A stretch of DNA of 32,000 bases from Flavobacteriaceae bacterium (GCA_965224465.1 OZ245049.1:4470001-4502000); one strand, 5' to 3'; counted from the stretch's first letter, positions 2,395 through 26,424 are shown. Notes: a model not told the origin generated them from the sequence alone. Numbers and translations: made by a program.

Positions 2395-3141
2395 ATGAAA
2401 TTAAGAGATGTATTAAATACAGAAGAAGGATATCAAGAAATAATAGATAAAAAAGATCGATTTATTAATTCTAGGTTTGATAAAATAAAAAAACTAAAAA
2501 AAGATGAAATTGATGGGATTCAACAATATCCTAAGCCTAATTATGACATTATTATAAGTTCCAAAAAAAGCATTCTAACTTTTTATCGTGAAATACTTGA
2601 GACTAAATATTCAGTAGGAGAAGAATTGTCTGTAATTAAACAGTATTATTTAGATGTTATTAACTTTATAAATGATTCTAAAACTCATTCAGGTTATGCA
2701 AATATTTTAAGATTAATTTCTATGGGGATTATGTTTGAAATAAATGAAGATGAGTTTAAGATACTAATTGAATTAGTAGAGAGGTATTTAAAGAAAACAA
2801 AAGATGAAGATTTTTTAATTGATTTTTTAATTAATTTCTATAAACCGGATTGGATACAATCCAATACTTTTTTAATAAATATACCTTATAAAAACATTAA
2901 TGGTATTATAGAATTATCAAAAAAGAGTAAGATAGAAGCATCAGTGAAATTAAATACATATATATCAAAATGTTGGTACAGAGGTATTATTGAAGTCGAA
3001 ACTCATAAAAGCAAGTGGAATATTCATACAGGTTATTGGAGTTGGGAAGCAGGTGCAATAGCAAAAATCCTAAATTTAGATGATAGTAGTTTAAAAGATC
3101 AACAATACTACCCTTATGATATGGTACATTTTAAAGATTAA
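2395..3141 (+). CDS. Immunity protein, PoNi/DUF1911-like
   Basis: Lies 13 bp after the toxin stop. The C-terminal GYWSWEAGAIAKILNLDDSSLKDQQYYPYD resembles the conserved DUF1910/DUF1911 (PoNi) C-terminus as I recall it. Confidence 0.5.
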   Translation: MKLRDVLNTEEGYQEIIDKKDRFINSRFDKIKKLKKDEIDGIQQYPKPNYDIIISSKKSILTFYREILETKYSVGEELSVIKQYYLDVINFINDSKTHSGYANILRLISMGIMFEINEDEFKILIELVERYLKKTKDEDFLIDFLINFYKPDWIQSNTFLINIPYKNINGIIELSKKSKIEASVKLNTYISKCWYRGIIEVETHKSKWNIHTGYWSWEAGAIAKILNLDDSSLKDQQYYPYDMVHFKD

Positions 3142-3146
3142 TAATA

Positions 3147-3701
3147 ATGTGTTACATTTTAGAACTATCTTATTTATTAGTGAATAAGGATCAGAAAGAT
3201 CAAATAAACATTCAAAAAGAAGTAAAACTATCTGTCAATAAACCTAAAGAATACTTTTCCTTATTTGCAAGTGATTTAGCAGAAAGAGGTATTGAGAAGC
3301 CAATTGTTGAATTGCCTTGGTTTGCAATGATTAATGGATTGTATCGTGAGGGGTTTCTACAAGAATTAGATTGGAAATCTTATCCTGAAGATTTTGTAGA
3401 AGCGACTTTAGCGTTAATTAAATGTCATTCAAATTCTAAGCAAATAAAAAATCAACTCCTAGATTTAGAATTTTTAAATAATGATTTAGAAGTAGAGGAA
3501 GTTATTATAAAAATTAATAAGGTACTACAAGAATTCAATATTTTACTAATTATTATTGATATAGATAGTGATAGTTATCTTTTAAATAGGATCGAATTTG
3601 ATAAAAAAGAAAGAGTTTTAGAGTTAGTTTCCTTTTTAGGTTACGGTAAAATTAAGATATATCGTAACAAAAAGAAGAGCCGTTTTTTATTAGACGAATA
3701 A
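3147..3701 (+). CDS. Second immunity-like protein of cassette B; C-terminal half duplicated at 1..267
   Basis: 184-aa ORF 5 bp after the previous stop, ending KKKSRFLLDE. No family recognised with confidence. Confidence 0.45.
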   Translation: MCYILELSYLLVNKDQKDQINIQKEVKLSVNKPKEYFSLFASDLAERGIEKPIVELPWFAMINGLYREGFLQELDWKSYPEDFVEATLALIKCHSNSKQIKNQLLDLEFLNNDLEVEEVIIKINKVLQEFNILLIIIDIDSDSYLLNRIEFDKKERVLELVSFLGYGKIKIYRNKKKSRFLLDE

Positions 3702-3761
3702 CGGATTACAAGCAGTTCTTTGAAATACAGAAGTAAATACCCTTTATGATTATAGCCAAGA
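3435..3761 (+). repeat. Right copy of the 327-bp direct repeat
   Basis: See 1..327. Confidence 0.9.
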
Positions 3762-3795
3762 CGACAAGACTAATAAATACATTTCGGTTGTGTAA
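3724..3795 (+). pseudogene. Truncated third junction copy: toxin-less stub marking the end of the array
   Basis: After TGA (3721-3723) it reads NTEVNTLYDYSQD, then diverges to DKTNKYISVV-stop. Only 43 bp (3719-3761) of the junction block is retained. Confidence 0.6.
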
Positions 3796-3820
3796 TTTAA
3801 ACTCTGTCTGCTTGTTTTTT

Positions 3821-3924
3821 TAGCTAGACGAAAAATGGATGGATAGCCCTGCTATCGTTCTGTTTTTCAACAACGCTAGTACATAAAATAAACTATTTAT
3901 ATCGGTTATTTTGGATTGTAATGG
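3821..3924 (+). repeat. Intergenic repeat family, copy 1 (contains an imperfect 18-bp-arm hairpin at 3830-3868)
   Basis: tagctagacgaaaaatggatggatagc-cct-gctatcgttctgtttttcaacaacgctag...ttttggattgtaatgg. The same element occurs at 16215, 26203 and 26314, all in the same orientation. Confidence 0.85.
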
Positions 3925-3969
3925 GGCTTACTTTATGAATCTCTTTGGTTTTATTCTTATCGTCCATAC

Positions 3970-6900
3970 TTAAGCAATTACGCTATGCTTCTTGAAATGC
4001 TCCGCCTGTTCAAAAATTTCTCGGTATACTTCATCTCTATCTACAGGAGGATAGCCATTTTCTCCTAAGAGAAGAATAAGATCCACTTTTAGTGCTGCTT
4101 TGATGTCGGCTCTATTGTTCCAATCGGTGTATTGGGCTTTATCGTCTACCACTTTTTTTACATGCCTGGCTAGTACTATTAATTTATCTTCAGGATAATC
4201 AAAATCATATTTATGAGCTAACTGTTTTAGAATGTCGTAAAAGGCTTTCTCTTCAAAATCAATTCCTAATTCGTCTCCTGCTACAAAAGCTTGTTTGATT
4301 TGTAGTACTAAGGTGGTTAGACTTTCTGCCATATCTTCATACACCTCCGAATTTAAAATATCTGAATCCTTACGTTCGTTGTATTTTTCTACCAAACTTT
4401 GGAATTGTTTTGTGAAATCTACTCCCTGCATTTTGTTTACACTTTTAATGTCTGCAATTGCTTTGAGTAGCAGTTGCTGTAGGAGTTTGATTTTTGTATT
4501 TGGTAGTTTTATTTTATTAATCTTAGCTAAATAGTCTTCATCAAATATATCAATCTGGGTTTCGTTTTCGTCTCCAAGTTTAAAAATTTCATGTACACCA
4601 TCGCTTTGCAAAGCATCTTTTATCATTTCTCGCACCTTCGCATTCATTTGTGATGAGTCAGGAGCGTTCCCTTTTGTTAGCTTGAATACAATAGATCGTA
4701 CGGCTAAATAATAATGAATATAATCGCGTTGTTCTCCATCAAAGGCTTCGCTTCCTGCACAGATATCATAAGCAGCTTTTAATCGTTTTACGAGGTGCAT
4801 AAATCGCTTTTCAAGTCCCAAGGTAGCCTGTACAAATTCGGCTGATTTATTCAAACACTGTAACTGCTCCAAGGAAGAGCTATTGAAATAATCGGTATTA
4901 TCAAAGGTGTGAAATATCCTACTTAAAATATCCAAGTGATCTTTTACCACCACTACAGACTGTGCAATATCCTCAAAATTTTGTGAATCCGCTTGGTTAT
5001 ACATTGCCAAAGCTAAATTCATAGCCTTTTTAATCCCAATATAATCCACGACCAAGCCTTTATTTTTACCTTTAAACTTTCTATTTACACGAGAAATAGT
5101 TTGAATAAGATTGTGTTTTTGCAAAGGCTTGTAAATATAAATAGTGTCCAAAAACGGTACATCAAAACCAGTCAACCACATATCTACAACAATCGCGATT
5201 TTAAAATTTGATTTTCCTTTTTTAAATTGTTTCGCCAATTCTTTACGATACTCCTTATTCCCTAAGAGCTTGTACATTTCCTTAGGATCATCTTTACCAC
5301 GGGTCATAATCATTTTTACCCGCTCGATTGCCTTGATTTCCTTTTGCTCTTTTTCAGAAAGTGTTACGCCTTCTTCTGCAACCAACACCTCGCCCCATTC
5401 AGGTTTTAAAAGTAGTATTTGTTGATGTAATTCATAACCAATAGTACGATTTGAACATACAAACATTGCCTTTCCTATCACGGTAGCACCTTCGGATACT
5501 CGTTTTACATAATGTTTTACAAAGTCACTAGCAATAGATTTTACCACATCAGGATCGCCCAAAATGGCGTTCATATTCCCCATGGCTTTTTTACTTTCTT
5601 CTACTTGATAATCACTGGCACCATCTGTTTCGCATTGTTCGTAGTATTGCTCTATCTCAGCAAGCTTACTATTATCCAAAACCACTTTTGCAGCACGTCC
5701 TTCATAGACGATACGAACCGTAATTTCATCCTCTACGGATTCCGTCATAGTATAGGCATCCATAATTTCTCCAAACACATCCAAGGTGGCATCAATAGGT
5801 GTTCCTGTAAACCCAACATAGGTAGCATTAGGTAAAGAATCGTGTAGGTATTTTGCAAAACCATAGGTTTTTTCTATACCGGTGTCTGTTACTTTTATTT
5901 TTTGATCTAAGTTTATTTGACTTCGGTGTGCCTCATCAGAAATACAAATAACATTGTTTCTATCGGTCAGTAATTCTATATCCTCGTTAAACTTGTGAAT
6001 GGTAGTTAGAAAAACTCCTCCAGACTGTCTGCCCTGGAGTAAGTCTCGTAAATGAGAACGACTCTCTACCGAAACAATAGTAGCATCGCCAACATAGCCT
6101 TTGGCATTGGTAAATTCTTCTGACAACTGACTGTCTAAATCCGTTCTGTCAGTAATAAGAATAATGGTAGGACTTTTAAAATAGGTACTACGCATTAACA
6201 AACGTGTTAAAAACAACATAGTAAAACTTTTACCACAACCTGTTGCTCCAAAGTAAGTCCCCCCCTTACCATCACCCTCTGGTTTTTGATGCAACTTTAT
6301 ATTTTTAAATAATTTATTGGCTGCATAAAACTGGGGATAACGACACAGAATTTTAATTTCCTTATTACCCGAATCGGGCATATATATAAAGTGATGGATA
6401 ATTTGCCGTAAACTATCCGTATTCAACATACCTTTTACTAAAGTGAACAGACTTTCAATACCATCTACCTCTTTCTTTTCTTCAAATAACTGCCTGTCGG
6501 ATGCCGACCTCCATGCATAGTAAAACTCAAATGGGGCAAAAAAAGATCCTGCCTTGGTATTTACACCATCAGAAATCACACAAAAGGCATTGTACTTAAA
6601 CAATTCAGGAATATCACGTCGGTAGCGTGTGGTTATCTGTGTATAGGCATCTTGGATGGTTACATTTTCGTTTATAGCCGTTTTAAACTCAAACACCACC
6701 AATGGGATTCCATTAGTATAGATGATACCGTCTGGTATACGCCCTTCTGGATGATGCTGTACAATGTTCAATTGGTTTACAAAGCGATAGGTATTCTTGT
6801 CTTTTTCGCTAAAATCTATCAAGCGAATAAAAACATCTTTTTTGGTATGATCTTCACGCTTCAATACAAAACCATTAGAAATCCAATCCATGAGTTGCTT

Positions 6901-7134
6901 ATTAGAATCGTATAAATCCGAGCTAGGAAGCACTTCTAGTTTTCGAACAATCGATGCTATTTCTGCCTTAGAAAGTTCTACATACTGTGAATGTAAGTAG
7001 TTTTTTAAATCTTCTTTTATCAAGACTTCATCATTCTTTCGATTGATTTCATCTCCTCTTAAGTGTTTAATTCCTTCGGAATCTAACAGGGCTATAAAGG
7101 CATTTTCTAATTGTGCTTCGTTGAATTTGTTCAT
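3970..7134 (-). CDS. hsdR: Type I restriction enzyme, R subunit
   Basis: 1054 aa with helicase motifs GATGCGKSFTM (Walker A), ISDEAHRSQ (DEAH) and QTISRVNR (motif VI). Lies in a locus with hsdM and hsdS. Confidence 0.93.
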   Translation of the reverse strand: MNKFNEAQLENAFIALLDSEGIKHLRGDEINRKNDEVLIKEDLKNYLHSQYVELSKAEIASIVRKLEVLPSSDLYDSNKQLMDWISNGFVLKREDHTKKDVFIRLIDFSEKDKNTYRFVNQLNIVQHHPEGRIPDGIIYTNGIPLVVFEFKTAINENVTIQDAYTQITTRYRRDIPELFKYNAFCVISDGVNTKAGSFFAPFEFYYAWRSASDRQLFEEKKEVDGIESLFTLVKGMLNTDSLRQIIHHFIYMPDSGNKEIKILCRYPQFYAANKLFKNIKLHQKPEGDGKGGTYFGATGCGKSFTMLFLTRLLMRSTYFKSPTIILITDRTDLDSQLSEEFTNAKGYVGDATIVSVESRSHLRDLLQGRQSGGVFLTTIHKFNEDIELLTDRNNVICISDEAHRSQINLDQKIKVTDTGIEKTYGFAKYLHDSLPNATYVGFTGTPIDATLDVFGEIMDAYTMTESVEDEITVRIVYEGRAAKVVLDNSKLAEIEQYYEQCETDGASDYQVEESKKAMGNMNAILGDPDVVKSIASDFVKHYVKRVSEGATVIGKAMFVCSNRTIGYELHQQILLLKPEWGEVLVAEEGVTLSEKEQKEIKAIERVKMIMTRGKDDPKEMYKLLGNKEYRKELAKQFKKGKSNFKIAIVVDMWLTGFDVPFLDTIYIYKPLQKHNLIQTISRVNRKFKGKNKGLVVDYIGIKKAMNLALAMYNQADSQNFEDIAQSVVVVKDHLDILSRIFHTFDNTDYFNSSSLEQLQCLNKSAEFVQATLGLEKRFMHLVKRLKAAYDICAGSEAFDGEQRDYIHYYLAVRSIVFKLTKGNAPDSSQMNAKVREMIKDALQSDGVHEIFKLGDENETQIDIFDEDYLAKINKIKLPNTKIKLLQQLLLKAIADIKSVNKMQGVDFTKQFQSLVEKYNERKDSDILNSEVYEDMAESLTTLVLQIKQAFVAGDELGIDFEEKAFYDILKQLAHKYDFDYPEDKLIVLARHVKKVVDDKAQYTDWNNRADIKAALKVDLILLLGENGYPPVDRDEVYREIFEQAEHFKKHSVIA

Positions 7135-7153
7135 TTTAAGTTAAATTTATTAG

Positions 7154-7213
7154 ACTACTTATTGTACTACCTATTATACCACCTATTGTACTACCTATTA
7201 TACCACCCACTTA
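7154..7213. repeat. Tandem 12-bp repeat, 4 good units plus 1 degenerate, in the spacer upstream of hsdR
   Basis: actacttattgt / actacctattat / accacctattgt / actacctattat / accacccactta. Equivalently, a perfect 24-bp unit twice (7160-7207). Confidence 0.9.
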
Positions 7214-8542
7214 TTTTATTTCATTATCGCTAGTATTTGTAATAACCCAAATACCTCTAGTACCACCTGCTCTTTTAATAACTCCTTTGTTTTTTAACAA
7301 GCCTATATGTTCTTGTGCAGCAGATCTATTAATTTTTAGATGATCAGCAATTTGAGAAATAGAAACTTTAGGATTATTTACAATAAGCTTAAAAACCTCT
7401 TTTTGCCTGGCTGTTAAATCACTGACTTGTTCGGTAACATGGTCAGTGACTTGTACGGTGACTTGTTCGGTAGTTGGAAAAACAATGCGTAAAAAATTGT
7501 CAGAAAATTTAAAACAATCTTTATTATAAGCTGCTAACATTCTTGGCACACCCGAACCTAATTGCTCTACTAAATCTAAATCCTTAAAAATCCGTATCAG
7601 TTCTTTATTTCTAGGAATAGAAAATCCTTCAAAAAATTCTGATTCACTTAAACCTTCCACCAGAGACCCTGCCGATGTAATCTCTATTCTATCCTTAAAA
7701 ATTTCAAATTTTGGAGCTACTTCACGGCTAAAATCATTGTGTACAAAAGCATTTATTACAGCCTCACGCAATGCCATAGCATTCCATAAGCGATGTTCTA
7801 TGCGGTCCTTTTCTGTAATTTTAGCAAGCGTACGGTTTTCTATGGCTAACTTATCCAATACACTTTTACAGGCTTTAATTAAGGAGCAATACCCATACTC
7901 ATTGGTTTCTGTAAGAGCTACACGATCCGTACCTGCATATTTGGCTACCTTTATGGATATATTATTAATATCCGATAATAAATACCCTGCGTAATTCCAT
8001 TGATCATCTTCGTTTTTCAGCTCTAAATTAACAGCAAACTGCCCATTTAATGTCTTTTCTTTTTCTTGATAATAAATATGCAGCTGTTCAAAAGCTAAGG
8101 ATCGTTTGGGCGACAGTATTTTACTAATCGTGTTTCTGGTCCTGGAAGCATATAATGTATCAATAATACGTTGCGGCATAGGTTCGGATGCCGTTCCTAT
8201 CCGTACATAACAGCCCTTTTCAGACATTCCGTACTTCTTTTTGAAATACGGTTTTTCGCTACCACTAGCCACCGTTACTTTTACCAATTGTTTGCCCTCT
8301 TGCTCCATAAGCGAAATATCAAACAAGCCCATACAGGAGGGTTGGATATTGGTTTTTAAACGGTCTTTTATACGCAACATCACATCATCTACATCACTTA
8401 TTCCAACAAATACTCCGTGTTTGTTCACTCCAAAAATTACCACACCTCCTAGCTGATAGTTTAAAAAAGCAATCACTTCCTTTTCTAGGTCTATGTCCTT
8501 GGTGAGTATTTCTTTATATTCGATGCGATTGGTCTCTGTCAT
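7211..8542 (-). CDS. AlbA_2 (Schlafen-like) + HATPase_c_4 + C-terminal wHTH protein, often annotated as a RecG-like putative transcriptional regulator
   Basis: N-terminus IEYKE...EVIAFLNYQLGGVVIFGV (AlbA_2-like). Mid-region REAVINAFVHNDF...IEITSAGSL...IPRNKELIRIF...EQLGSGVPRM (HATPase_c_4-like). C-terminal HTH SISQIADHLKINRSAAQEHIGLLKNKGVI. Confidence 0.8.
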   Translation of the reverse strand: MTETNRIEYKEILTKDIDLEKEVIAFLNYQLGGVVIFGVNKHGVFVGISDVDDVMLRIKDRLKTNIQPSCMGLFDISLMEQEGKQLVKVTVASGSEKPYFKKKYGMSEKGCYVRIGTASEPMPQRIIDTLYASRTRNTISKILSPKRSLAFEQLHIYYQEKEKTLNGQFAVNLELKNEDDQWNYAGYLLSDINNISIKVAKYAGTDRVALTETNEYGYCSLIKACKSVLDKLAIENRTLAKITEKDRIEHRLWNAMALREAVINAFVHNDFSREVAPKFEIFKDRIEITSAGSLVEGLSESEFFEGFSIPRNKELIRIFKDLDLVEQLGSGVPRMLAAYNKDCFKFSDNFLRIVFPTTEQVTVQVTDHVTEQVSDLTARQKEVFKLIVNNPKVSISQIADHLKINRSAAQEHIGLLKNKGVIKRAGGTRGIWVITNTSDNEIK

Positions 8543-8566
8543 GGGGTAATTGTTAATACTTAATTA

Positions 8567-9721
8567 TTAATGGTTGATGACTCCTTTTTCCTCTTTTAGT
8601 AAAAGTACTATCTTTTCAACTAATGAAAAGAATTGATCTTCTTCTAATTTTGAAATTAAAAAATCTGTCAGATTATAAATCTCATCATCATTCAAAACAT
8701 ATGTTTTTGTAGCAAAATGAGCCCATTTTTTATTCTTATCTTGAGTGAAATTATTTACTAGATGTTTATTTTCTTCGGAAGACAATTTTAAATCGGCATA
8801 TTGTTCTTTATTGTTTAATGCCTTGTTTTGTAATTCAACAATTATCTTTAACTCTTTTATGGGAGTCAATAATCCAGCATATATAATCGTAAACATTATA
8901 TTAGGATTGCTCCTAGAAACAAAATAACGTAAAATCTTTTTTAAGTTCCCACTAGACTGATTAAGCGTAAACTCTTTATTATCTTTAGGAATAACTTCGT
9001 TTATTTGTTGCGTAATATGTTCCCTTGCTATTTCACTAATTTTAATGACACTGTTTATAGCTTTTTGATTTTTTATATAAAATTCAAAATCTTCTTTTTT
9101 CATCGTAGGAGTACTTAAATTATAAATGTTTTGTGCAAAATCCTTTAAGAAAACAATGTATTTATCCTTGGATTCTATCAAATAAGGACCGCTATTTCTC
9201 ATTACTTGTTGCATGAGTTGCTGATGGGTGATATTTATGAATTTCTCACTTCCCAACTTATGCGAATACATGACCGCTTTTAAAGAAAGTATCACACCTA
9301 TATATCCGTTTTCACACGCATTCTCTTTGACAATAGTTTTCCAATAATCTACTAAATCATTACCTTCGATATGATGCTTTACTTTATTTTCTATAATAAT
9401 GGCTTGTTGCGAATTTTCAAGTAGAAGATCTATTCTCCCGTTAGCTATCGTACTATATTCCGTATGTATTTTAAAGTTAGAAAAATCTTGCAGTCCTGTT
9501 TTCTTTTTCCCTAATTCGGAGGCAGCAATGAGCTCTATAAAACTTTTAATAAACAAATCCCCCAAACTATGTTCTTCATTTACATTAAAGAAAAAAGCAT
9601 AGATATTAGACAATACATTTTCGTAATGTGGCTGCTTGGCGATGCCTAAAAAAGTTAAGGGCTTTTTTTTAATAACAGGAATTTTATTTTCCGATAAAAA
9701 TTTCTCTAATAATGCTAACAT
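8567..9721 (-). CDS. PD-(D/E)xK nuclease superfamily protein (PDDEXK_4-like)
   Basis: HYENVLSNIYAFFFNVNEEHSLGDLF, then GRIDLLLENSQQAIIIENKVKH (D...ExK core). Confidence 0.65.
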   Translation of the reverse strand: MLALLEKFLSENKIPVIKKKPLTFLGIAKQPHYENVLSNIYAFFFNVNEEHSLGDLFIKSFIELIAASELGKKKTGLQDFSNFKIHTEYSTIANGRIDLLLENSQQAIIIENKVKHHIEGNDLVDYWKTIVKENACENGYIGVILSLKAVMYSHKLGSEKFINITHQQLMQQVMRNSGPYLIESKDKYIVFLKDFAQNIYNLSTPTMKKEDFEFYIKNQKAINSVIKISEIAREHITQQINEVIPKDNKEFTLNQSSGNLKKILRYFVSRSNPNIMFTIIYAGLLTPIKELKIIVELQNKALNNKEQYADLKLSSEENKHLVNNFTQDKNKKWAHFATKTYVLNDDEIYNLTDFLISKLEEDQFFSLVEKIVLLLKEEKGVINH

Positions 9722-9817
9722 GTTTATTTAATTTATAATTAATCATCAACCATTAATATTCCTCTTTCCTAATCTCCCCTTCCGCAAAATCTTGCACTAC
9801 AGATTGTATGGAATAAT

Positions 9818-10102
9818 TCACAAAACATTCAAACAACTTCCAATTTCTGTGCTTGGCCATTTGCTTTCATCGGTGCACCAACCGAATAGTATTTCTTCCA
9901 AAAGATATTCGAAATTTGCTTTTAAAAAAAGGATTGATTCCTCCGTACAATCATATTCTGGAATTAAATACACGGTGGATTCATCATGTTTATTAGAAGC
10001 GTCCTTATGTATAGGGTCTTCTGGAAATATGCTGTTTACCCAATCAAATAAGGCTTGTTTGGGCGTGATAATTAAAGCGGTTCTGTTTACGGATGCTAAC
10101 AT
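9818..10102 (-). CDS. Small conserved hypothetical protein, probably truncated by a 1-nt frameshift near 9855-9858
   Basis: 94-aa ORF co-oriented with its neighbours. The shifted frame stays open for a further 37 codons (KQMAKHRNWKLFECFVNYSIQSVVQDFAEGEIRKEEY) down to a stop at 9753. Confidence 0.45.
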   Translation of the reverse strand: MLASVNRTALIITPKQALFDWVNSIFPEDPIHKDASNKHDESTVYLIPEYDCTEESILFLKANFEYLLEEILFGWCTDESKWPSTEIGSCLNVL

Positions 10103-10128
10103 GTTTATCTAATTTATTTCATATATAA

Positions 10129-11139
10129 TTAACCCTTATTTTTTTCTAATCCTTTTACCATTTTATCAAAATCGGATACAATTTTCTGAGTTTTATTAAA
10201 CACATCATACTCGGTATGTGCTTTTTTTTCTGCTTGTTTTTTAGATTTTTTACCTAAACCTTCTAAAACCAAGTATTCATTAAAACTTAAAAATTTATTT
10301 ACACTCAAAGCCAATTGCTCCATGGTAAAGGTGTTTTCTCTTTCAATTAAACCTTCTATATAATCAAAGTACCCTGTAACTGTGCGTTCTAATTGTTTTA
10401 TCTCTTTTTCTTGCAAATAATTTTTAGCAACACTTGTGTCCGACTTAATAATACGACCCTCTGGTGCATTTTTCCAATTGGTTAAACCCATATTTTCTTG
10501 CCTACGATCCGCCTTTAAATAGATGATTTCTGCGGCTGTTTTACCTGTAATCGCAAAGTGGAATTTGTTTTGGATTGTTGCATAAAACCTTTTAGTTACA
10601 GATGAATTCTTATCATAATCAATGCTACACTCAGCAAAAATATCGGTTACTTGTTGGTAAATGCGTCTTTCACTTGCGCGAATAGAGCGAACCCTTTCTA
10701 GTAATTCTTTAAAATAATCTTTACCAAATAATGTTTTCCCTTGTTTTAAACGTTCATCATCTATGGTAAACCCCTTGATGATATACTCTTTTAACGTTTT
10801 TGTTGCCCAAATACGAAACTGAGTAGCTTTTGTAGAATTAACGCGGTACCCAACCGAAATAATAGCATCTAAATTGTAAAAAGTTACTAATTTGGTTTGA
10901 GTTTTCCCAGTAATAGCACCATGTTGAGTGGTTGTTTCCAATTTGGAAATAACCATCTCTTTTTTCAATTCTCCGCTTTCGAATATATTACGTAAATGTT
11001 TGCTAACCGCTGGCACACCAACAGAAAAAAGTTCCGCCATCGCTTTTTGTGTAAGCCAAACACTTTCCTCCATAAGTACTACATCTAAACGAATATCTCC
11101 GCCTGGAGCTGTGTATAATAAAAAATTAGTCTCTAACAT
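10129..11139 (-). CDS. rhuM: RhuM family (virulence protein RhuM-like) DNA-binding protein
   Basis: N-terminus LYTAPGGDIRLDVVLMEESVWLTQKAMAELF...VSKHLRNIF...YNLDAIISVGYRVNS..ATQFRIWAT is the characteristic RhuM pattern. This family is a frequent passenger in type I R-M loci. Confidence 0.8.
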   Translation of the reverse strand: MLETNFLLYTAPGGDIRLDVVLMEESVWLTQKAMAELFSVGVPAVSKHLRNIFESGELKKEMVISKLETTTQHGAITGKTQTKLVTFYNLDAIISVGYRVNSTKATQFRIWATKTLKEYIIKGFTIDDERLKQGKTLFGKDYFKELLERVRSIRASERRIYQQVTDIFAECSIDYDKNSSVTKRFYATIQNKFHFAITGKTAAEIIYLKADRRQENMGLTNWKNAPEGRIIKSDTSVAKNYLQEKEIKQLERTVTGYFDYIEGLIERENTFTMEQLALSVNKFLSFNEYLVLEGLGKKSKKQAEKKAHTEYDVFNKTQKIVSDFDKMVKGLEKNKG

Positions 11140-11233
11140 AGGTGTCTCTTATTCATTTATAATTAATATTACGCTTTCCTTTATGTGTTTGATACCTCCT
11201 AAATTTCTATATATATTCATGATGGTTTTTTTA

Positions 11234-11440
11234 TTATTTATTTCCCTTCTCCACCTCCAACATAGCAACTGGAACCGACAACTTACCCGAGATTAATTGA
11301 GGTAATAAAGTGTTGCGAAGTTTGGTGAGTGATTGATTTTTTTTTGTTTTTACAACTGAATATCTAAAATTTCTTTCATTCAACAGTCGCTCTAGTTTTA
11401 ATAGAATAGGTTTGTTACCTATCATATAAGTCACGCACAC
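11234..11440 (-). pseudogene. Remnant of an hsdS 3' end (last ~31 codons plus stop region)
   Basis: ...LTKLRNTLLPQLISGKLSVPVAMLEVEKGNK versus the intact HsdS C-terminus LTKLRDTLLPQLISGKLSVPDAMLEVEKEIN. DNA ~11248-11330 matches ~11666-11748 with about 6 mismatches. Confidence 0.7.
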
Positions 11441-11636
11441 ACCTATTTATGTAACCATTTAATCCAGTTCCGTTTCTCGCAAGACTTTTCATTTCCTCAA
11501 CATTATCCCTGCCAGCTCTAGTATAACTGTAGCTATAAATTCTAGAATTTCCACTAAATTTGACTGAAATGTTATCTAAGCCTATTTCATAAGCTTGTAC
11601 ACCAGAATTACCACTATTATTGCTATAAGTCTCCAT
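11415..11636 (-). CDS. KTSC domain-containing small protein
   Basis: 73 aa. AYEIGLDNISVKFSGNSRIYSYSYTRAGRDNVEEMKSLARNGTGLNGYINRCVR fits the KTSC (PF13619) pattern (..Y.....L.V.F..G..Y.Y......y..l.....G.y.N..i). Confidence 0.6.
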   Translation of the reverse strand: METYSNNSGNSGVQAYEIGLDNISVKFSGNSRIYSYSYTRAGRDNVEEMKSLARNGTGLNGYINRCVRDLYDR

Positions 11637-11650
11637 ATTATACTTTTTTC

Positions 11651-13009
11651 TTAATTAATTTCTTTCTCTACCTCCAACATAGCATCTGGCACCGACAACT
11701 TACCCGATATTAATTGAGGTAATAAAGTGTCGCGAAGTTTGGTTAGTTTACCAGAAAGAATATTGTTACTGTCCTTTTTAGAATTAAAATTTGATAGAGA
11801 ATTTTCAATTAAACATTGTCCACTCTTTGGTGGAACTAGAACTTCAACTTCTGATAAGCGTAATCTACTGAGTTCTGTTTGACCTGTACTTCCTTCTCCC
11901 ATAGCTTCAATATAATCTTCAATTGAAAACATTAAATATTGAAAAAAACTAGTTTCTAATATACTTTTATTTCCCCTTACAACTGTAACATGAGAATCTA
12001 CTATGGTAGGCTCATCTAAAGATAAAATAGTCGCAATTCTTCCTAATGTTCCAGTTCCTGTGGAATTAATTACAATATCTCCGATTTCCAGTAACCTTCC
12101 TTCTGTTTTTCTTTTGGTTGGATCATTCCTTCTGGCTAAAGAATAATTTACAATATGATTTCTAATACATTTTTGATTAAGAACTCTAATCCCTCCATCT
12201 TCAATATATTTTGGAGAAACACCTCTTCTTAATTCCACTGTAATATCTTTTAGCGGTTTTACTCCCCACCCTACAGGAATCCATTTCTCCAACACTTCAT
12301 TAAACACAAAGCTATCTGGAAACAGTTCATTAATTTCAGGTGTATTTTTCTTGGTAACTGCTAACCTTAGCCCTCCTTTTTTACGCAAAGGCTCTGGCAA
12401 GGCTTCTACATTTCCACCATTTTTTACCAAGAAATTATCTAATACAGGATCAAAATCTACAAACCAAGACTGAAACAAGGCTTGTGCCATGGCTTCTAAA
12501 CTTTCGTTCATCTTGCGGTTGAGTTCTATTTTTGCATCTAAATCGCCCAGTATTTTAGCTATTGCTTTTTGGGTTGGGAGGGGTGGTAGTTTGAATTTGT
12601 ATTGTTCAATTGCGTCTCTGTCCCCCCGAGGCATCTTTGTCCCTTTAGCTGTAGCTACGGTGTAATCTATAAAATCTTGCCCTGACAGAATGGAATACAA
12701 GAACTTAGGAGCTAATTTCCCTGAAGACCTAAATACTAATACATCATTAGAACATCCTCCATCGCGATCTGCGAACCAAACTTTTTTAAAATAAGTTCTA
12801 ATATTTGAAAAAAGGACATCGTTTTCTATATACGACCTAGCCGTAGTCGCAGAAGGTAATCCTGACGAAACTGATATCCCTCCAAGGTCAGGCATCATAT
12901 TTTCTGTTGAGATATAATTATCCAAACTAAGTTCTGACACTTTTATTTTCTTTGAAACAAACTCAATAACATCCCCCAAAACAACTTCTCTCCATCCACC
13001 ATTACTCAT
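11651..13009 (-). CDS. hsdS: Type I restriction-modification system, specificity subunit
   Basis: 452 aa with two target-recognition halves. They are separated by the conserved helix LPPLPTQKAIAKILGDLDAKIELNRKMNESLEAMAQALFQSWFVDFDP, and the protein ends with LRDTLLPQLISGKL. Overlaps hsdM by 8 bp. Confidence 0.9.
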   Translation of the reverse strand: MSNGGWREVVLGDVIEFVSKKIKVSELSLDNYISTENMMPDLGGISVSSGLPSATTARSYIENDVLFSNIRTYFKKVWFADRDGGCSNDVLVFRSSGKLAPKFLYSILSGQDFIDYTVATAKGTKMPRGDRDAIEQYKFKLPPLPTQKAIAKILGDLDAKIELNRKMNESLEAMAQALFQSWFVDFDPVLDNFLVKNGGNVEALPEPLRKKGGLRLAVTKKNTPEINELFPDSFVFNEVLEKWIPVGWGVKPLKDITVELRRGVSPKYIEDGGIRVLNQKCIRNHIVNYSLARRNDPTKRKTEGRLLEIGDIVINSTGTGTLGRIATILSLDEPTIVDSHVTVVRGNKSILETSFFQYLMFSIEDYIEAMGEGSTGQTELSRLRLSEVEVLVPPKSGQCLIENSLSNFNSKKDSNNILSGKLTKLRDTLLPQLISGKLSVPDAMLEVEKEIN

Positions 13010-14567
13010 AACCCAACATTTTTAAGTTAGTACGAATCGCCACATCCAAATCCTTAGCCTCCTCCATTTGAGTAAATAATAATTGGGTCAATGACCCCAT
13101 TTTGGTTTCAAAAGGAATACCATCGCCTTCTTCTTCGGCAACACCAACATAACGCCCAGGCGTTAATACAAAGTCATTTTTTTCTATTTCGGCTAAAGTG
13201 GCAGATTTACAATATCCTGCTATGTCTTCGTAAGTTCCGTCTTTACTTTCACCTCTCCAAGCGTGGTAGGTTCTGGTAATTTCGGCAAGGTCGTCTGTAG
13301 TTAGTTCTTTATGGGTACGGTCTACCATAGTTCCCATATTACGGGCATCTATAAATAAGGTTTCACCTTCTCTATTTCTATGGTTTCTGGTTTGGTCTTC
13401 AAATTGTTGTTCCTTCTTGTTCTTAGTCATAAACCATAAACAAACAGGAATTTGAGTGGTATAGAACAACTGCCCTGGTAAGGCAATCATACAATCTACC
13501 AAATCGTTTTCTAGCATTTGTTTACGGAGTTTTCCTTCACCCGAGGTATTGGAACTCATAGAACCATTTGCCAATACAAAACCAGCGGTTCCGTTTTCGG
13601 ACAATTTAGAAATCATGTTTAAAATCCACGCATAATTAGCATTACCTGTAGGTGGTGTATCGTAACCGTTCCATCTAGCATCGTCGGTTAATTCATCTTT
13701 TCCACGCCATTCCTTTTGGTTAAAGGGTGGGTTTGCCATGATATAATCGGCTTTTAAATCGGGATGTTGGTCTTTAAAAAACGTATCGGCAGGCACAGCA
13801 CCAAGGTTGGCAGAAATACCACGAATGGCTAAGTTCATTTTTGCCAGTTTGTAGGTCGTAGCCGTGTACTCTTGTCCATAAATAGAAATGTCTTTGGTGT
13901 TTCCCTTATGGTTTTGCACAAACTTAATAGACTGCACAAACATACCTCCCGAACCACAGGCAGGATCGTAAATTTTCCCTTTGTAAGGTTCTAGCATTTC
14001 GGCAATCAGGTTTACAATACATTTTGGGGTGTAGAATTCTCCACCACCTTTTCCCTCGGCAGAAGCAAATTTCCCTAAAAAGTATTCGTAAATACGCCCT
14101 ACAATATCGTTTTCCTTGTCGGCAATGGTATCAATATCGTTAATGGTATCCAATAAAGACGATAGCTTACTCGGATCTAAATTTAATCTCGAAAAATAAT
14201 TATCAGGTAAAGCTCCTTTTAAGCTTGGGTTGTTTTTTTCTATGGTGCTCAATGCCGTATCTATTTTTAATGCGATATCGGTTTGCTTGGCATTTTCTAT
14301 AATATATTCCCAACGAGATTCTGGCGAAAGGTAGAATACGTTTTTCATGGTATAGAACTCCACCATGTCTAGGTATTTATCTTTGCCTTCGGAGATGAGT
14401 TCTTGTTTTCGTTCTTCGAATTTATCGGAGGTAAATTTCAGGAATATCAATCCTAAAACTACGTGTTTGTATTCAGAACTTTCTACAGTTCCTCTTAATT
14501 TATTTGCGGAATCCCAAAGCGTTTCTTCGATAGATTTTGATTTTTTTGAGGTAATTTTTTTTGCCAT
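13002..14567 (-). CDS. hsdM: Type I restriction-modification system, N6-adenine DNA methyltransferase subunit
   Basis: HsdM_N-like N-terminus (LWDSANKLRG), motif I DPACGSGGMF and motif IV MANPPFNQKEW. Confidence 0.93.
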   Translation of the reverse strand: MAKKITSKKSKSIEETLWDSANKLRGTVESSEYKHVVLGLIFLKFTSDKFEERKQELISEGKDKYLDMVEFYTMKNVFYLSPESRWEYIIENAKQTDIALKIDTALSTIEKNNPSLKGALPDNYFSRLNLDPSKLSSLLDTINDIDTIADKENDIVGRIYEYFLGKFASAEGKGGGEFYTPKCIVNLIAEMLEPYKGKIYDPACGSGGMFVQSIKFVQNHKGNTKDISIYGQEYTATTYKLAKMNLAIRGISANLGAVPADTFFKDQHPDLKADYIMANPPFNQKEWRGKDELTDDARWNGYDTPPTGNANYAWILNMISKLSENGTAGFVLANGSMSSNTSGEGKLRKQMLENDLVDCMIALPGQLFYTTQIPVCLWFMTKNKKEQQFEDQTRNHRNREGETLFIDARNMGTMVDRTHKELTTDDLAEITRTYHAWRGESKDGTYEDIAGYCKSATLAEIEKNDFVLTPGRYVGVAEEEGDGIPFETKMGSLTQLLFTQMEEAKDLDVAIRTNLKMLGYE

Positions 14568-14792: not shown

Positions 14793-15883
14793 GGCTCAAC
14801 TTGTAAATAGCGTATTTATTTCGTAACTTACTGAAAAACAGAATCATTATGGATAATTCAGCTATTTTAAAATATTTTGACTGTCTAGATGTAACTAAGC
14901 AGGATATTTTGCTTAAAGAATTTCAGTCTCTTTGCAAATCAGGAAGTTATGTAGACATTATTAAAATGAGAGGGAATGCTTTAGATGACAGAAGGGGTGA
15001 ATGCCCTTACTGCAATGGCTATCACTATATAAAAGCAGGTGTTGATAAAAACAGCAGGCGTTATAAATGTAAAGATTGTAAACGTACTTTTACTGAATTT
15101 ACCGGCAGTTGGCTAGCTGGGATACACAAAAAGCAACGCATACCAGCCTTTTTAAAAACACTTGAATTGAATTTAAGTTTGGTTAAAACAGGAAAGGATC
15201 TTTCCATAGATCCAGGGACGGCATTTAGATGGCGTCATCGTTTTTTGTCTGCTATGTTTCAAGAAACCACAGGTTATTTCAAAGGAATCACCGAGAGTGA
15301 TGAGACCTTTTATTTACACAGTCAAAAAGGTAAAAAGTGTGTACATAGACCTCCCAGAAGTAGATCCGAAAAGAAAGGGGCAGGTATAACAAAAGAATAC
15401 GCAACGGTATTAACAACCCAAGATAGAGCAGAACTATGCGTGTCTAAATTTACAAATATGGGCAGAATTACCAAGAGTAATATAAAAAACACTATCGGAA
15501 GCATGGTAGATAATAGAACCATATTTTGTTCTGATGGACACCGTAGTTTTACAGGGTTTAGTAAGGATTTACATTTAGAGCATCATGTTTTAAACAGTAG
15601 TAAAAACCAACGAGTCAAAGGGACTTATCATATTCAGCACATCAATAGTTTGCATAGTAGGTTAAAGACATTTTGTAACGTGAAATTAAAAGGAGTATCC
15701 ACAAAATATCTTCAAAAATATTTAAATTGGCAAACAATTAAAGATTCATATCGTAAAGAATCAAATTGGGTAGTTACTGTCCTTAAGTACTCAATGAAAC
15801 GTTCAAATGCAATTAAAATATATAACAATATCCAAACTGATTATGACAAAATTTTTATAACAACGCTAAATGCTAGTTGAGCC
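14793..15883 (+). mobile_element. Complete IS1595-family insertion sequence (1091 bp) with 8-bp target-site duplication
   Basis: Imperfect terminal inverted repeats: GGCTCAACTTGTAAATAGCGTATTTAT (14793-) and the reverse complement of the right end GGCTCAACTAGCATTTAGCGTTGTTAT (21/27 match). The direct repeat ATATTCAT lies at 14785-14792 and 15884-15891. Confidence 0.85.
14849..15880 (+). CDS. IS1595-family (ISXO2-like DDE) transposase
   Basis: N-terminal zinc ribbon CPYCNGYHYIKAG...YKCKDCKRTF. Catalytic candidates SDETF, FCSDGHRSF and HINSLHSRLK. The stop codon lies inside the right inverted repeat. Confidence 0.85.
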   Translation: MDNSAILKYFDCLDVTKQDILLKEFQSLCKSGSYVDIIKMRGNALDDRRGECPYCNGYHYIKAGVDKNSRRYKCKDCKRTFTEFTGSWLAGIHKKQRIPAFLKTLELNLSLVKTGKDLSIDPGTAFRWRHRFLSAMFQETTGYFKGITESDETFYLHSQKGKKCVHRPPRSRSEKKGAGITKEYATVLTTQDRAELCVSKFTNMGRITKSNIKNTIGSMVDNRTIFCSDGHRSFTGFSKDLHLEHHVLNSSKNQRVKGTYHIQHINSLHSRLKTFCNVKLKGVSTKYLQKYLNWQTIKDSYRKESNWVVTVLKYSMKRSNAIKIYNNIQTDYDKIFITTLNAS

Positions 15884-16214
15884 ATATTCATCTGATTATT
15901 CATAAGGATTGTAAAACCCTGAACCTTTAGATGTAGTACAATCTATAGTTATACTCCCGTCTTTAGATTGCACTAGACCACAACCTTCACAGTTTTTACA
16001 TTCCTGTCTTTTTCTACCCAACTCATTTTTTCTTTTTTTCATCATTTTTTATCTTTACAATTAAATATTGCTTTCAATAGAAGCAACATTTAAGAATAGG
16101 ACATTTATTTAAAAATGGTTGGATTGGGTTTTTATCGGAAAAAATATTTTTGTTTTCACATACGTATTTCCATAAACTCATCTGATAAAATAAGAGTATC
16201 AATTACAGGAGTTA

Positions 16215-16325
16215 TATCTAGACGAAAAATGGATGGATAGCTTAGCTATCGTTCTGTTTTTCAACAACGCTAGCACGTAAAAAAAACCTATTTATATCGG
16301 TGATTTTGGATTGTAATTGGTATCA
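16215..16325 (+). repeat. Intergenic repeat family, copy 2
   Basis: tatctagacgaaaaatggatggatagc-tta-gctatcgttctgtttttcaacaacgctag...ttttggattgtaattggtatca. The stem is identical to copy 1 and the loop differs. Confidence 0.85.
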
Positions 16326-25965: not shown

Positions 25966-26202
25966 TTCTGTAATTCTATTTTTTTGTGTAAAAATTATAA
26001 CCTAATAATCAATATTTTGATATGAAACAAAGAATTATTTTTAGTTTTATAATTTAAGTTCGGCAAATATACTACTTATTTAGACTTAATAAGGATAAGA
26101 ACGATCGCATTTAAGAATTTTAATGAACGTTGGTTAATTTTTACTAGTAAGTATCTGTAGATAAGCTTTATATAGAGGATGTGTAAAATGATATTGGTAT
26201 TA

Positions 26203-26313
26203 TAGCTAGGCGGAAAATGGATGGATAGCCGTAGCTATCGTTCTGTTTTTCAACAACGCTAGAACATAAAATAAACTATTTGTATAGGTCATTTTGGATT
26301 TTAATTGGTATTA
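26203..26313 (+). repeat. Intergenic repeat family, copy 3 (first unit of a tandem pair)
   Basis: tagctaggcggaaaatggatggatagc-cgta-gctatcgttctgtttttcaacaacgctag...attttggattttaattggtatta. Confidence 0.85.
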
Positions 26314-26424
26314 TAGCTAGGCGAAAATTCTTAGGATAGTCTTAGTTATCGTTCTGTTTTTCAACAACGCTAAAATGTATAAGATACTATTTATATTGGT
26401 GATTTTGGATTGTAATTGGTATCA
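26314..26424 (+). repeat. Intergenic repeat family, copy 4 (second, more diverged unit of the tandem pair)
   Basis: tagctaggcgaaaattcttaggatagtcttagttatcgttctgtttttcaacaacgctaa...attttggattgtaattggtatca. Confidence 0.8.

Follow-up and report, generated by a model that had tools for sequence, protein, structure and literature searches.

We analysed a 32,000-nucleotide (nt) stretch of DNA from a Flavobacteriaceae bacterium (GCA_965224465.1, OZ245049.1:4470001-4502000; hereafter the window), in which a run of co-oriented genes on the minus strand, from position 14567 down to 3970, was identified from the list of open reading frames (ORFs) and from Pfam and PADLOC matches as a Type I restriction-modification (R-M) operon. 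Its genes and associated features, in operon order, are as follows.

13002-14567, minus strand: hsdM, 521 amino acids; N6_Mtase (6e-109, 364 bits) and HsdM_N; PADLOC MTase_I 1.4e-192
11651-13009, minus strand: hsdS, 452 amino acids; two stretches of Methylase_S; PADLOC Specificity_I 2.6e-88 (295 bits)
11415-11636, minus strand: ORF of 73 amino acids from a widespread small-protein family, KTSC-like at best
11227-11440, minus strand: remnant of an hsdS 3' end, with a 68-amino-acid ORF at 11234-11440; PADLOC Specificity_I 8.6e-10
10129-11139, minus strand: RhuM, PADLOC candidate PDC-S05, 336 amino acids; PF13310 4e-102; PDC-S05 3e-153 over its full length
9753-10102, minus strand: frameshifted small gene (ORF 9818-10102), about 116 amino acids when intact
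8567-9721, minus strand: PDDEXK_4 nuclease, PADLOC candidate PDC-S26, 384 amino acids; PF14281 5e-20; PDC-S26 1.3e-47
7211-8542, minus strand: Schlafen protein of the Schlatpase-HTH type, 443 amino acids; PF04326 3e-19, PF13749 1e-14 and a winged helix-turn-helix (wHTH)
7148-7207, no strand assigned: tandem repeat of 12 nt x5 (24 nt x2.5), 0 expected by chance; minus-strand unit GGTrGTAyAATA
3970-7134, minus strand: hsdR, 1054 amino acids; HSDR_N, SWI2_SNF2/ResIII, T1R_D3-like and T1RH-like_C; PADLOC REase_I 1232 bits
3842-3856, minus strand: terminator-like hairpin downstream of hsdR

The R-M operon and its hsdS-hsdR interval

HsdM carries the methyltransferase domain, HsdS two target-recognition domains and HsdR a nuclease, a superfamily 2 (SF2) motor and a C-terminal domain, and these genes identify an intact, complete Type I R-M system. 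Between hsdS and hsdR lie 4.5 kb filled with closely packed genes on the same strand, and throughout the operon neighbouring genes either overlap or are 14-96 nt apart. A preliminary description of this DNA had reported such a split, and every ORF was recovered on the minus strand where it had been placed. Its identification of the passenger genes likewise held for the hsdS remnant, RhuM, the frameshifted gene, the PDDEXK_4 nuclease and the AlbA_2/HATPase_c_4/wHTH protein (the Schlafen protein of this text), but the name KTSC given to the 73-amino-acid ORF is a weak one, with no Pfam match to the ORF at E values up to 10. A hairpin scan found no convincing terminator within the operon; a sigma-70 promoter scan gave 34 sites against 43 expected, and the intergenic spacers contained no Bacteroidetes-type TAnnTTTG box. 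We infer that the operon is co-transcribed, with the hairpin at 3842-3856 as its likely end.

Comparative context came from two sets of loci, 59 genomic loci anchored on relatives of the nuclease and 80 metagenomic loci anchored on close relatives of the Schlafen protein (individual loci are given L numbers below). The interval from hsdM/hsdS to hsdR could be delimited in 50 of these; the genes it enclosed were clustered and the recurrent clusters annotated.

DUF6998: 13 loci
OLD-family nuclease: 10 loci
GmrSD-like (GmrSD_N) / HEC-05: 8 loci
PDDEXK_15-like protein: 8 loci
Thoeris ThsA with ThsB: 5 loci
AbiEi/AbiEii: 4 loci
AAA_13 / PDC-S06: 3 loci
Tmn: 3 loci

The proposal that this interval is a landing pad for defence genes is borne out by the presence of two PADLOC embedded candidates here and of known systems in related Bacteroidota operons. 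The cargo-slot arrangement is thus supported, and it follows a pattern already published in 2024 as 'guilt-by-embedding', in which defence genes are nested in Type I R-M, BREX, DISARM and Hma systems (Payne, Hughes, Fineran and Jackson, 2024, bioRxiv 10.1101/2024.01.29.577857). PDC-S05 and PDC-S26 are PADLOC candidates defined by their embedding in R-M systems, and a PADLOC search of the locus, as had been suggested, matched both along with the R-M genes. The window has the same layout as the embedded systems of that study, from which these two models come: the host genes share one strand, and the additional genes that sit among them belong neither to mobility nor to housekeeping functions. 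It differs from them in stacking three intact modules and two remnants in one slot, in its Flavobacteriia-like source, which homologues place within the Bacteroidota, and in a Schlafen module that has no model in PADLOC-DB v2, where it gave weak partial matches only.

The explanation we favour, with a probability of about 0.7, is a single Type I R-M operon with an exchangeable slot between hsdS and hsdR, occupied by three intact defence modules, each of a single gene and independent of the others, together with two decayed remnants and a further small gene. The order of the modules varies among loci. This explanation is built on what was observed of gene content, domain make-up, conservation of catalytic residues and comparative context, from which biochemical activities and a defence phenotype in the host are predicted. 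The locus is a clean but ordinary case of the published rule that Type I R-M operons hold other defence genes. It is also a compact natural cassette of three families. Two of these, PDC-S26 and the small Schlatpase-HTH form (among prokaryotic Schlafens the most common architecture), are known from sequence rather than function.

The three full-length passengers

RhuM scored 341 bits against PF13310, for which the curated cut-off is 33.7, and 508 bits against the PADLOC profile PDLC04868 over residues 3-334. RhuM-like genes have been known from R-M operons since 2013, with a proposed role as toxins, and in E. coli B one PDC-S05 gene is reported to have lowered plating about 1000-fold for T7 and T5 and also to have protected against T4. 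The window protein is a full-length match to this family and shares its embedding in R-M, although the member tested against phage came from a cold-seep microbe. RhuM would be the first module, a putative toxin.

The PDDEXK_4 protein would be the second, a DNA nuclease with an intact D...ExK site. It matched PF14281 at 72.6 bits (cut-off 22.3) and PDLC04975 at 161 bits, and the PD-(D/E)xK catalytic triad is present, D98, E111 and K113 being invariant in 25 homologues of 41-51% identity. A search of PDB sequences with the PDDEXK_4 profile gave no match. The confident AlphaFold2 model (predicted local distance difference test score, pLDDT, 85) gave weak Foldseek matches which were consistently to restriction-endonuclease folds, including the R.BspD6I small subunit, MspJI, NucS, Cdn1 and LmuA; these matches were generic to PD-(D/E)xK proteins, and none assigned the C-terminal half. 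A perfect 16-nt inverted repeat (8565-8580 and 9743-9758) brackets the gene exactly, one arm holding its stop codon and the other the original stop codon of the frameshifted small gene. As a cassette boundary this repeat was rejected: such a repeat occurred in 11% of Markov-simulated regions, flanking repeats in homologous loci were no longer than 10 nt, and the junctions were not conserved.

Among the 40 loci of the PDDEXK_4 clade with at least 5 kb on both sides (full-flank loci), 35 contain co-oriented hsd genes, with the nearest no more than 3.5 kb from the nuclease in 34. This linkage spans hsdR genes very close to that of the window (29 loci) and divergent ones (8 loci), and the nuclease occurs in two positions, immediately ahead of hsdR and immediately ahead of hsdM. 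A relative of 26% identity directly precedes hsdR on a conjugative plasmid of Vibrio alginolyticus (L141, NZ_CP014052.1), where the order across 3730-12358 is AbiE, hsdM-hsdS, two GTPase genes, the PDDEXK_4 relative and hsdR, an embedded layout in a different phylum. The copy on a Klebsiella plasmid is not linked to R-M. The five loci without hsd genes still look defence-like, since they include a large methylase, an HD-CE/GHKL protein or a second paralogue of PDDEXK_4; where present, the second paralogue is divergent and directly adjoins the first (L025:11209-12294, L041:8766-9986).

PADLOC models PDC-S26 as a single-gene candidate. Elsewhere the sole translationally coupled partner of the nuclease is DUF6998 (PF22522), a protein of about 155 amino acids. 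In about 10-11 loci (L005, L007, L008, L009, L013, L020, L023, L024, L036, L055, L086) its gene overlaps the start of the nuclease gene, typically by 3-7 nt, or abuts it. Of the 59 nuclease loci 14 have DUF6998 upstream of the nuclease, as does L086; the window has no copy. DUF6998 with PDDEXK_4 is likely to be a two-gene form of PDC-S26 for which PADLOC has no model.

In the Schlafen protein, PF04326 (SLFN_AlbA_2) spans residues 3-122 at 70 bits, which is longer than the 100 amino acids required of a prokaryotic Schlafen (pSlfn) domain; HATPase_c_4 scored 54.5 bits against a cut-off of 26, and wHTH families matched residues 374-427. Its first ten residues hold the Ex4ExK motif (E3-TNRI-E8-Y-K10), of which the general form Ex4(E/D)xK is the catalytic motif that defines prokaryotic Schlafen nucleases; the motif is invariant in 22 homologues and retained in 15 of 17 distant relatives, and the GHKL residues E260, N264, G329 and G331 are invariant in the close homologues. 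Foldseek matched the AlphaFold model best to 3LMM (1e-16, full length), followed by histidine-kinase CA domains, LexA winged helices and SLFN12; the C-terminal winged helix resembles those of LexA and MarR. 3LMM is a structural-genomics entry (DIP2311, Corynebacterium diphtheriae), and as the best whole-length match to a model of low confidence it shares 16-17% sequence identity with the window protein.

By its architecture the protein belongs to the pSlfn-HisKinase-HTH class, which accounts for 19.2% of prokaryotic Schlafens (Perez Taboada et al., 2026, PMC13056530), and it is also an example of the Schlatpase supradomain with a C-terminal HTH. That supradomain occurs in 58.6% of 103,533 prokaryotic Schlafen proteins, with stand-alone Schlatpase genes in Type I R-M operons already noted (bioRxiv 10.64898/2026.05.29.728809). 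The window protein shares with these a PF04326 domain of more than 100 amino acids, the Ex4ExK motif, a PF13749 GHKL domain and an HTH at the C terminus, as well as a setting in a defence island. Because the nuclease motif is kept, the Schlafen protein is probably an effector, a nuclease with its own ATP switch, rather than a sensor for another nuclease. As the third module it would stand alone: the GHKL domain's binding of ATP would assemble an oligomer, and the resulting active RNase would cut tRNA on infection, with the C-terminal winged helix as the likely nucleic-acid sensor. This scheme is drawn from related proteins, tRNA cleavage and phage protection being extrapolated from RorSlfn5 and RzAgo and the mechanism from SLFN-pAgo, a far larger protein.

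In 20 of 22 loci the Schlafen gene overlaps the start of hsdR, usually by 4 nt (ATGA), or abuts it. Most related loci thus have no spacer, whereas in the window a spacer of 76 nt separates the Schlafen stop codon from the hsdR start and is filled by the array of 12-nt repeats at 7148-7207, which might represent an operator, an inserted promoter or a tract prone to slippage. Inside the Schlafen gene there is another 12-nt tandem repeat (7423-7471, 4.1 copies, 72% matches), encoding the TEQV/TDHV-like linker that joins the GHKL domain to the winged helix. Close Schlafen homologues are accompanied by hsd genes in 10 of 23 full-flank loci and have none in the other 13.

Several points weigh against three independent defence modules. 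The linkage of PDDEXK_4 to R-M and the coupling of Schlafen to hsdR may mean that the modules are not fully autonomous, and what the modules do at this locus is predicted from their families. A literature search for anti-phage experiments on PDC-S26 found only a listing, and two Schlafen-HisKinase fusions gave no protection in E. coli against the phage panel used (PMC13056530). The AlphaFold model of the Schlafen protein is also poor (pLDDT 65), and served for domain-level matches only.

Relationships between the passengers and with the R-M genes

The preliminary description had read the nuclease and the Schlafen protein as an effector-sensor pair, with the Schlafen-like protein sensing infection and the nuclease executing the response. 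The two genes are adjacent and co-oriented in the window with a gap of 24 nt, they are also adjacent in L003, L006, L011, L045, L053, L056 and L084, and an AlbA_2-like gene is present in 17 of the 59 nuclease-anchored loci, directly downstream of the nuclease in 7. These AlbA_2-like genes are mostly distant ones, however, and in the reverse direction the nuclease is present in just 2 of the 80 loci anchored on close Schlafen homologues (L084 and L086). The Schlafen family is at least tenfold larger (more than 4333 matches against 440 for the nuclease). Order and distance also vary: besides nuclease-Schlafen we found Schlafen-nuclease (L050), nuclease-RhuM-Schlafen (L038, L058) and nuclease-Schlafen-RhuM (L084), and in five loci (L015, L019, L021, L044, L046) the two genes lie on opposite sides of hsdM-hsdS, in the order nuclease-hsdM-hsdS-Schlafen. 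The gaps between the two genes are 3-163 nt, and there is never a start/stop overlap, unlike the junctions of DUF6998 with PDDEXK_4 and of Schlafen with hsdR. Conditional frequencies within R-M-linked loci, approximately 37% and 7%, are those expected if the two genes filled a shared slot independently; the comparison falls short of a formal test, and the argument draws on the two anchored samples and the family sizes. Together with the nuclease motif of the Schlafen protein itself and the treatment of PDC-S26 as a single-gene candidate by PADLOC, this low and asymmetric co-occurrence makes a dedicated pair very unlikely. The comparative data point to other candidate partners, DUF6998 for PDDEXK_4 and HsdR for Schlafen.

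Coupling to the R-M genes themselves is the basis of a guard model like that of PrrC, in which one or both nucleases would be silenced by the Type I complex and freed when a phage anti-restriction protein disables it; tRNA cleavage by Schlafen and DNA cleavage by PDDEXK_4 would then form a second line of defence with new folds. In the prr locus of E. coli, prrC lies between hsdS and hsdR of EcoprrI. The window shares this interval and likewise holds within it a predicted tRNA-cutting nuclease, coupled to hsdR in related loci, although PrrC combines an ABC-ATPase with HEPN where the window protein combines Schlafen with GHKL. The 35 full-flank PDDEXK_4 loci beside co-oriented hsd genes, which cover at least two to three divergent Type I families and two positions, are consistent with a guard, as are the same nuclease position on the Vibrio plasmid of another phylum and the 20 of 22 Schlafen genes that overlap or abut hsdR. 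PrrC is reported to occur almost exclusively as an embedded gene of Type I R-M (Payne et al., 2024, bioRxiv 10.1101/2024.01.29.577857). Set against such near-exclusive embedding, the PDDEXK_4 clade stands at 35/40 and close Schlafen homologues at 10/23, so that, unlike PrrC, many of the latter lie away from R-M; hsd genes are absent from 5/40 and 13/23 of the respective loci, and the Klebsiella plasmid copy of the nuclease is not R-M linked. Moreover, whichever gene is last in the slot necessarily abuts hsdR, and in the window a repeat-filled spacer separates the two. We consider the guard model unlikely on balance; if it held, the PrrC principle would also cover a Schlafen tRNase and a DNA nuclease as back-up layers.

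That same spacer invites a reading of the Schlafen protein as mainly a DNA-binding regulator of hsdR or the operon, acting through the 12-nt repeats upstream of hsdR. The five-copy array lies exactly between the Schlafen stop codon and the start of hsdR, the winged helix at the C terminus is LexA/MarR-like, and public sources call relatives 'predicted HTH transcriptional regulator'. A pure repressor would have no need of the invariant nuclease and GHKL motifs, however; in most related loci there is neither spacer nor repeat and the gene overlaps hsdR; many homologues are far from any hsd gene; and an HTH is present in more than 90% of Schlatpase proteins regardless of context (bioRxiv 10.64898/2026.05.29.728809). 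A primarily regulatory role is accordingly quite improbable. Least probable of all is that the passengers are decaying hitch-hikers with no current function, as might be suggested by the frameshifted gene, the hsdS fragment and an IS1595 transposase next to hsdM; RhuM, PDDEXK_4 and Schlafen are full length against their family profiles, with conserved catalytic residues. The exchangeable slot with independent modules remains the explanation we prefer.

Remnants, repeats and flanking genes

Under this explanation the slot contents would be exchanged by homologous recombination in the conserved flanking hsd genes. A 104-nt direct repeat has one copy within the hsdS remnant and the other at the 3' end of the live hsdS (11644-11747), with 89% identity and a spacing of 417 nt, and this duplicated 3' end may be the scar of at least one exchange by recombination inside hsdS.

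NCBIfam gave no family for any passenger, apart from wHTH noise. The 73-amino-acid ORF between hsdS and the remnant has 1044 representative relatives in a HMMER scan; KTSC (PF13619), matched by 2 of 30 sampled relatives (E 0.0099), was the sole recurring family. A PDB sequence search with this ORF gave spurious matches only, and an indexed protein search returned the query alone. The same small gene also follows hsdS in L047 and L055.

The frameshifted small gene has no Pfam family. Its frameshift was confirmed by tblastn with intact homologues from L093 and L109, in which the alignment switches frame after 'KWP' and the last 33 residues lie in the other frame; the original end is at about 9753, with an apparent 1-nt deletion near 9852-9857. 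Because the intact homologues (L093:958-1449, L109:447-806) directly precede a Schlafen-hsdR pair, this family appears to be another recurrent R-M passenger. A 25-nt direct repeat (9712-9736 and 10093-10117, 96% identical) takes in, for PDDEXK_4 and the small gene alike, the first codons (M-L-A) and the bases just upstream; it brackets a unit of 381 bp and may be a recombination junction between cassettes.

Outside the operon, an array of toxin-immunity genes (PoNi, DUF6630) lies on one side, and the IS1595 transposase, an ABC transporter and haem-related genes on the other. The transposase, which is the sole mobility gene, is outside the operon.

14849-15880, strand opposite to the operon: IS1595-family (ISXO2-like) transposase, 281 nt upstream of hsdM
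2395-3141, strand not stated: PoNi, toxin-immunity array
3147-3701, strand not stated: DUF6630, toxin-immunity array

Within the toxin-immunity array, a 300-nt repeat is 100% identical between 1-300 and 3435-3734, and a 43-nt unit occurs three times (285-327, 1765-1807, 3719-3761); these indicate recent cassette duplication beside the R-M operon. A further family of repeats of about 111 nt, with a terminator-like hairpin, has copies at 3810-3920, 16205-16315 and 26193-26414 that are 61-83% identical to the reference copy. These bracket the block formed by the R-M operon and IS1595, with a tandem pair 10 kb beyond, and could be either island boundaries or a generic intergenic repeat.

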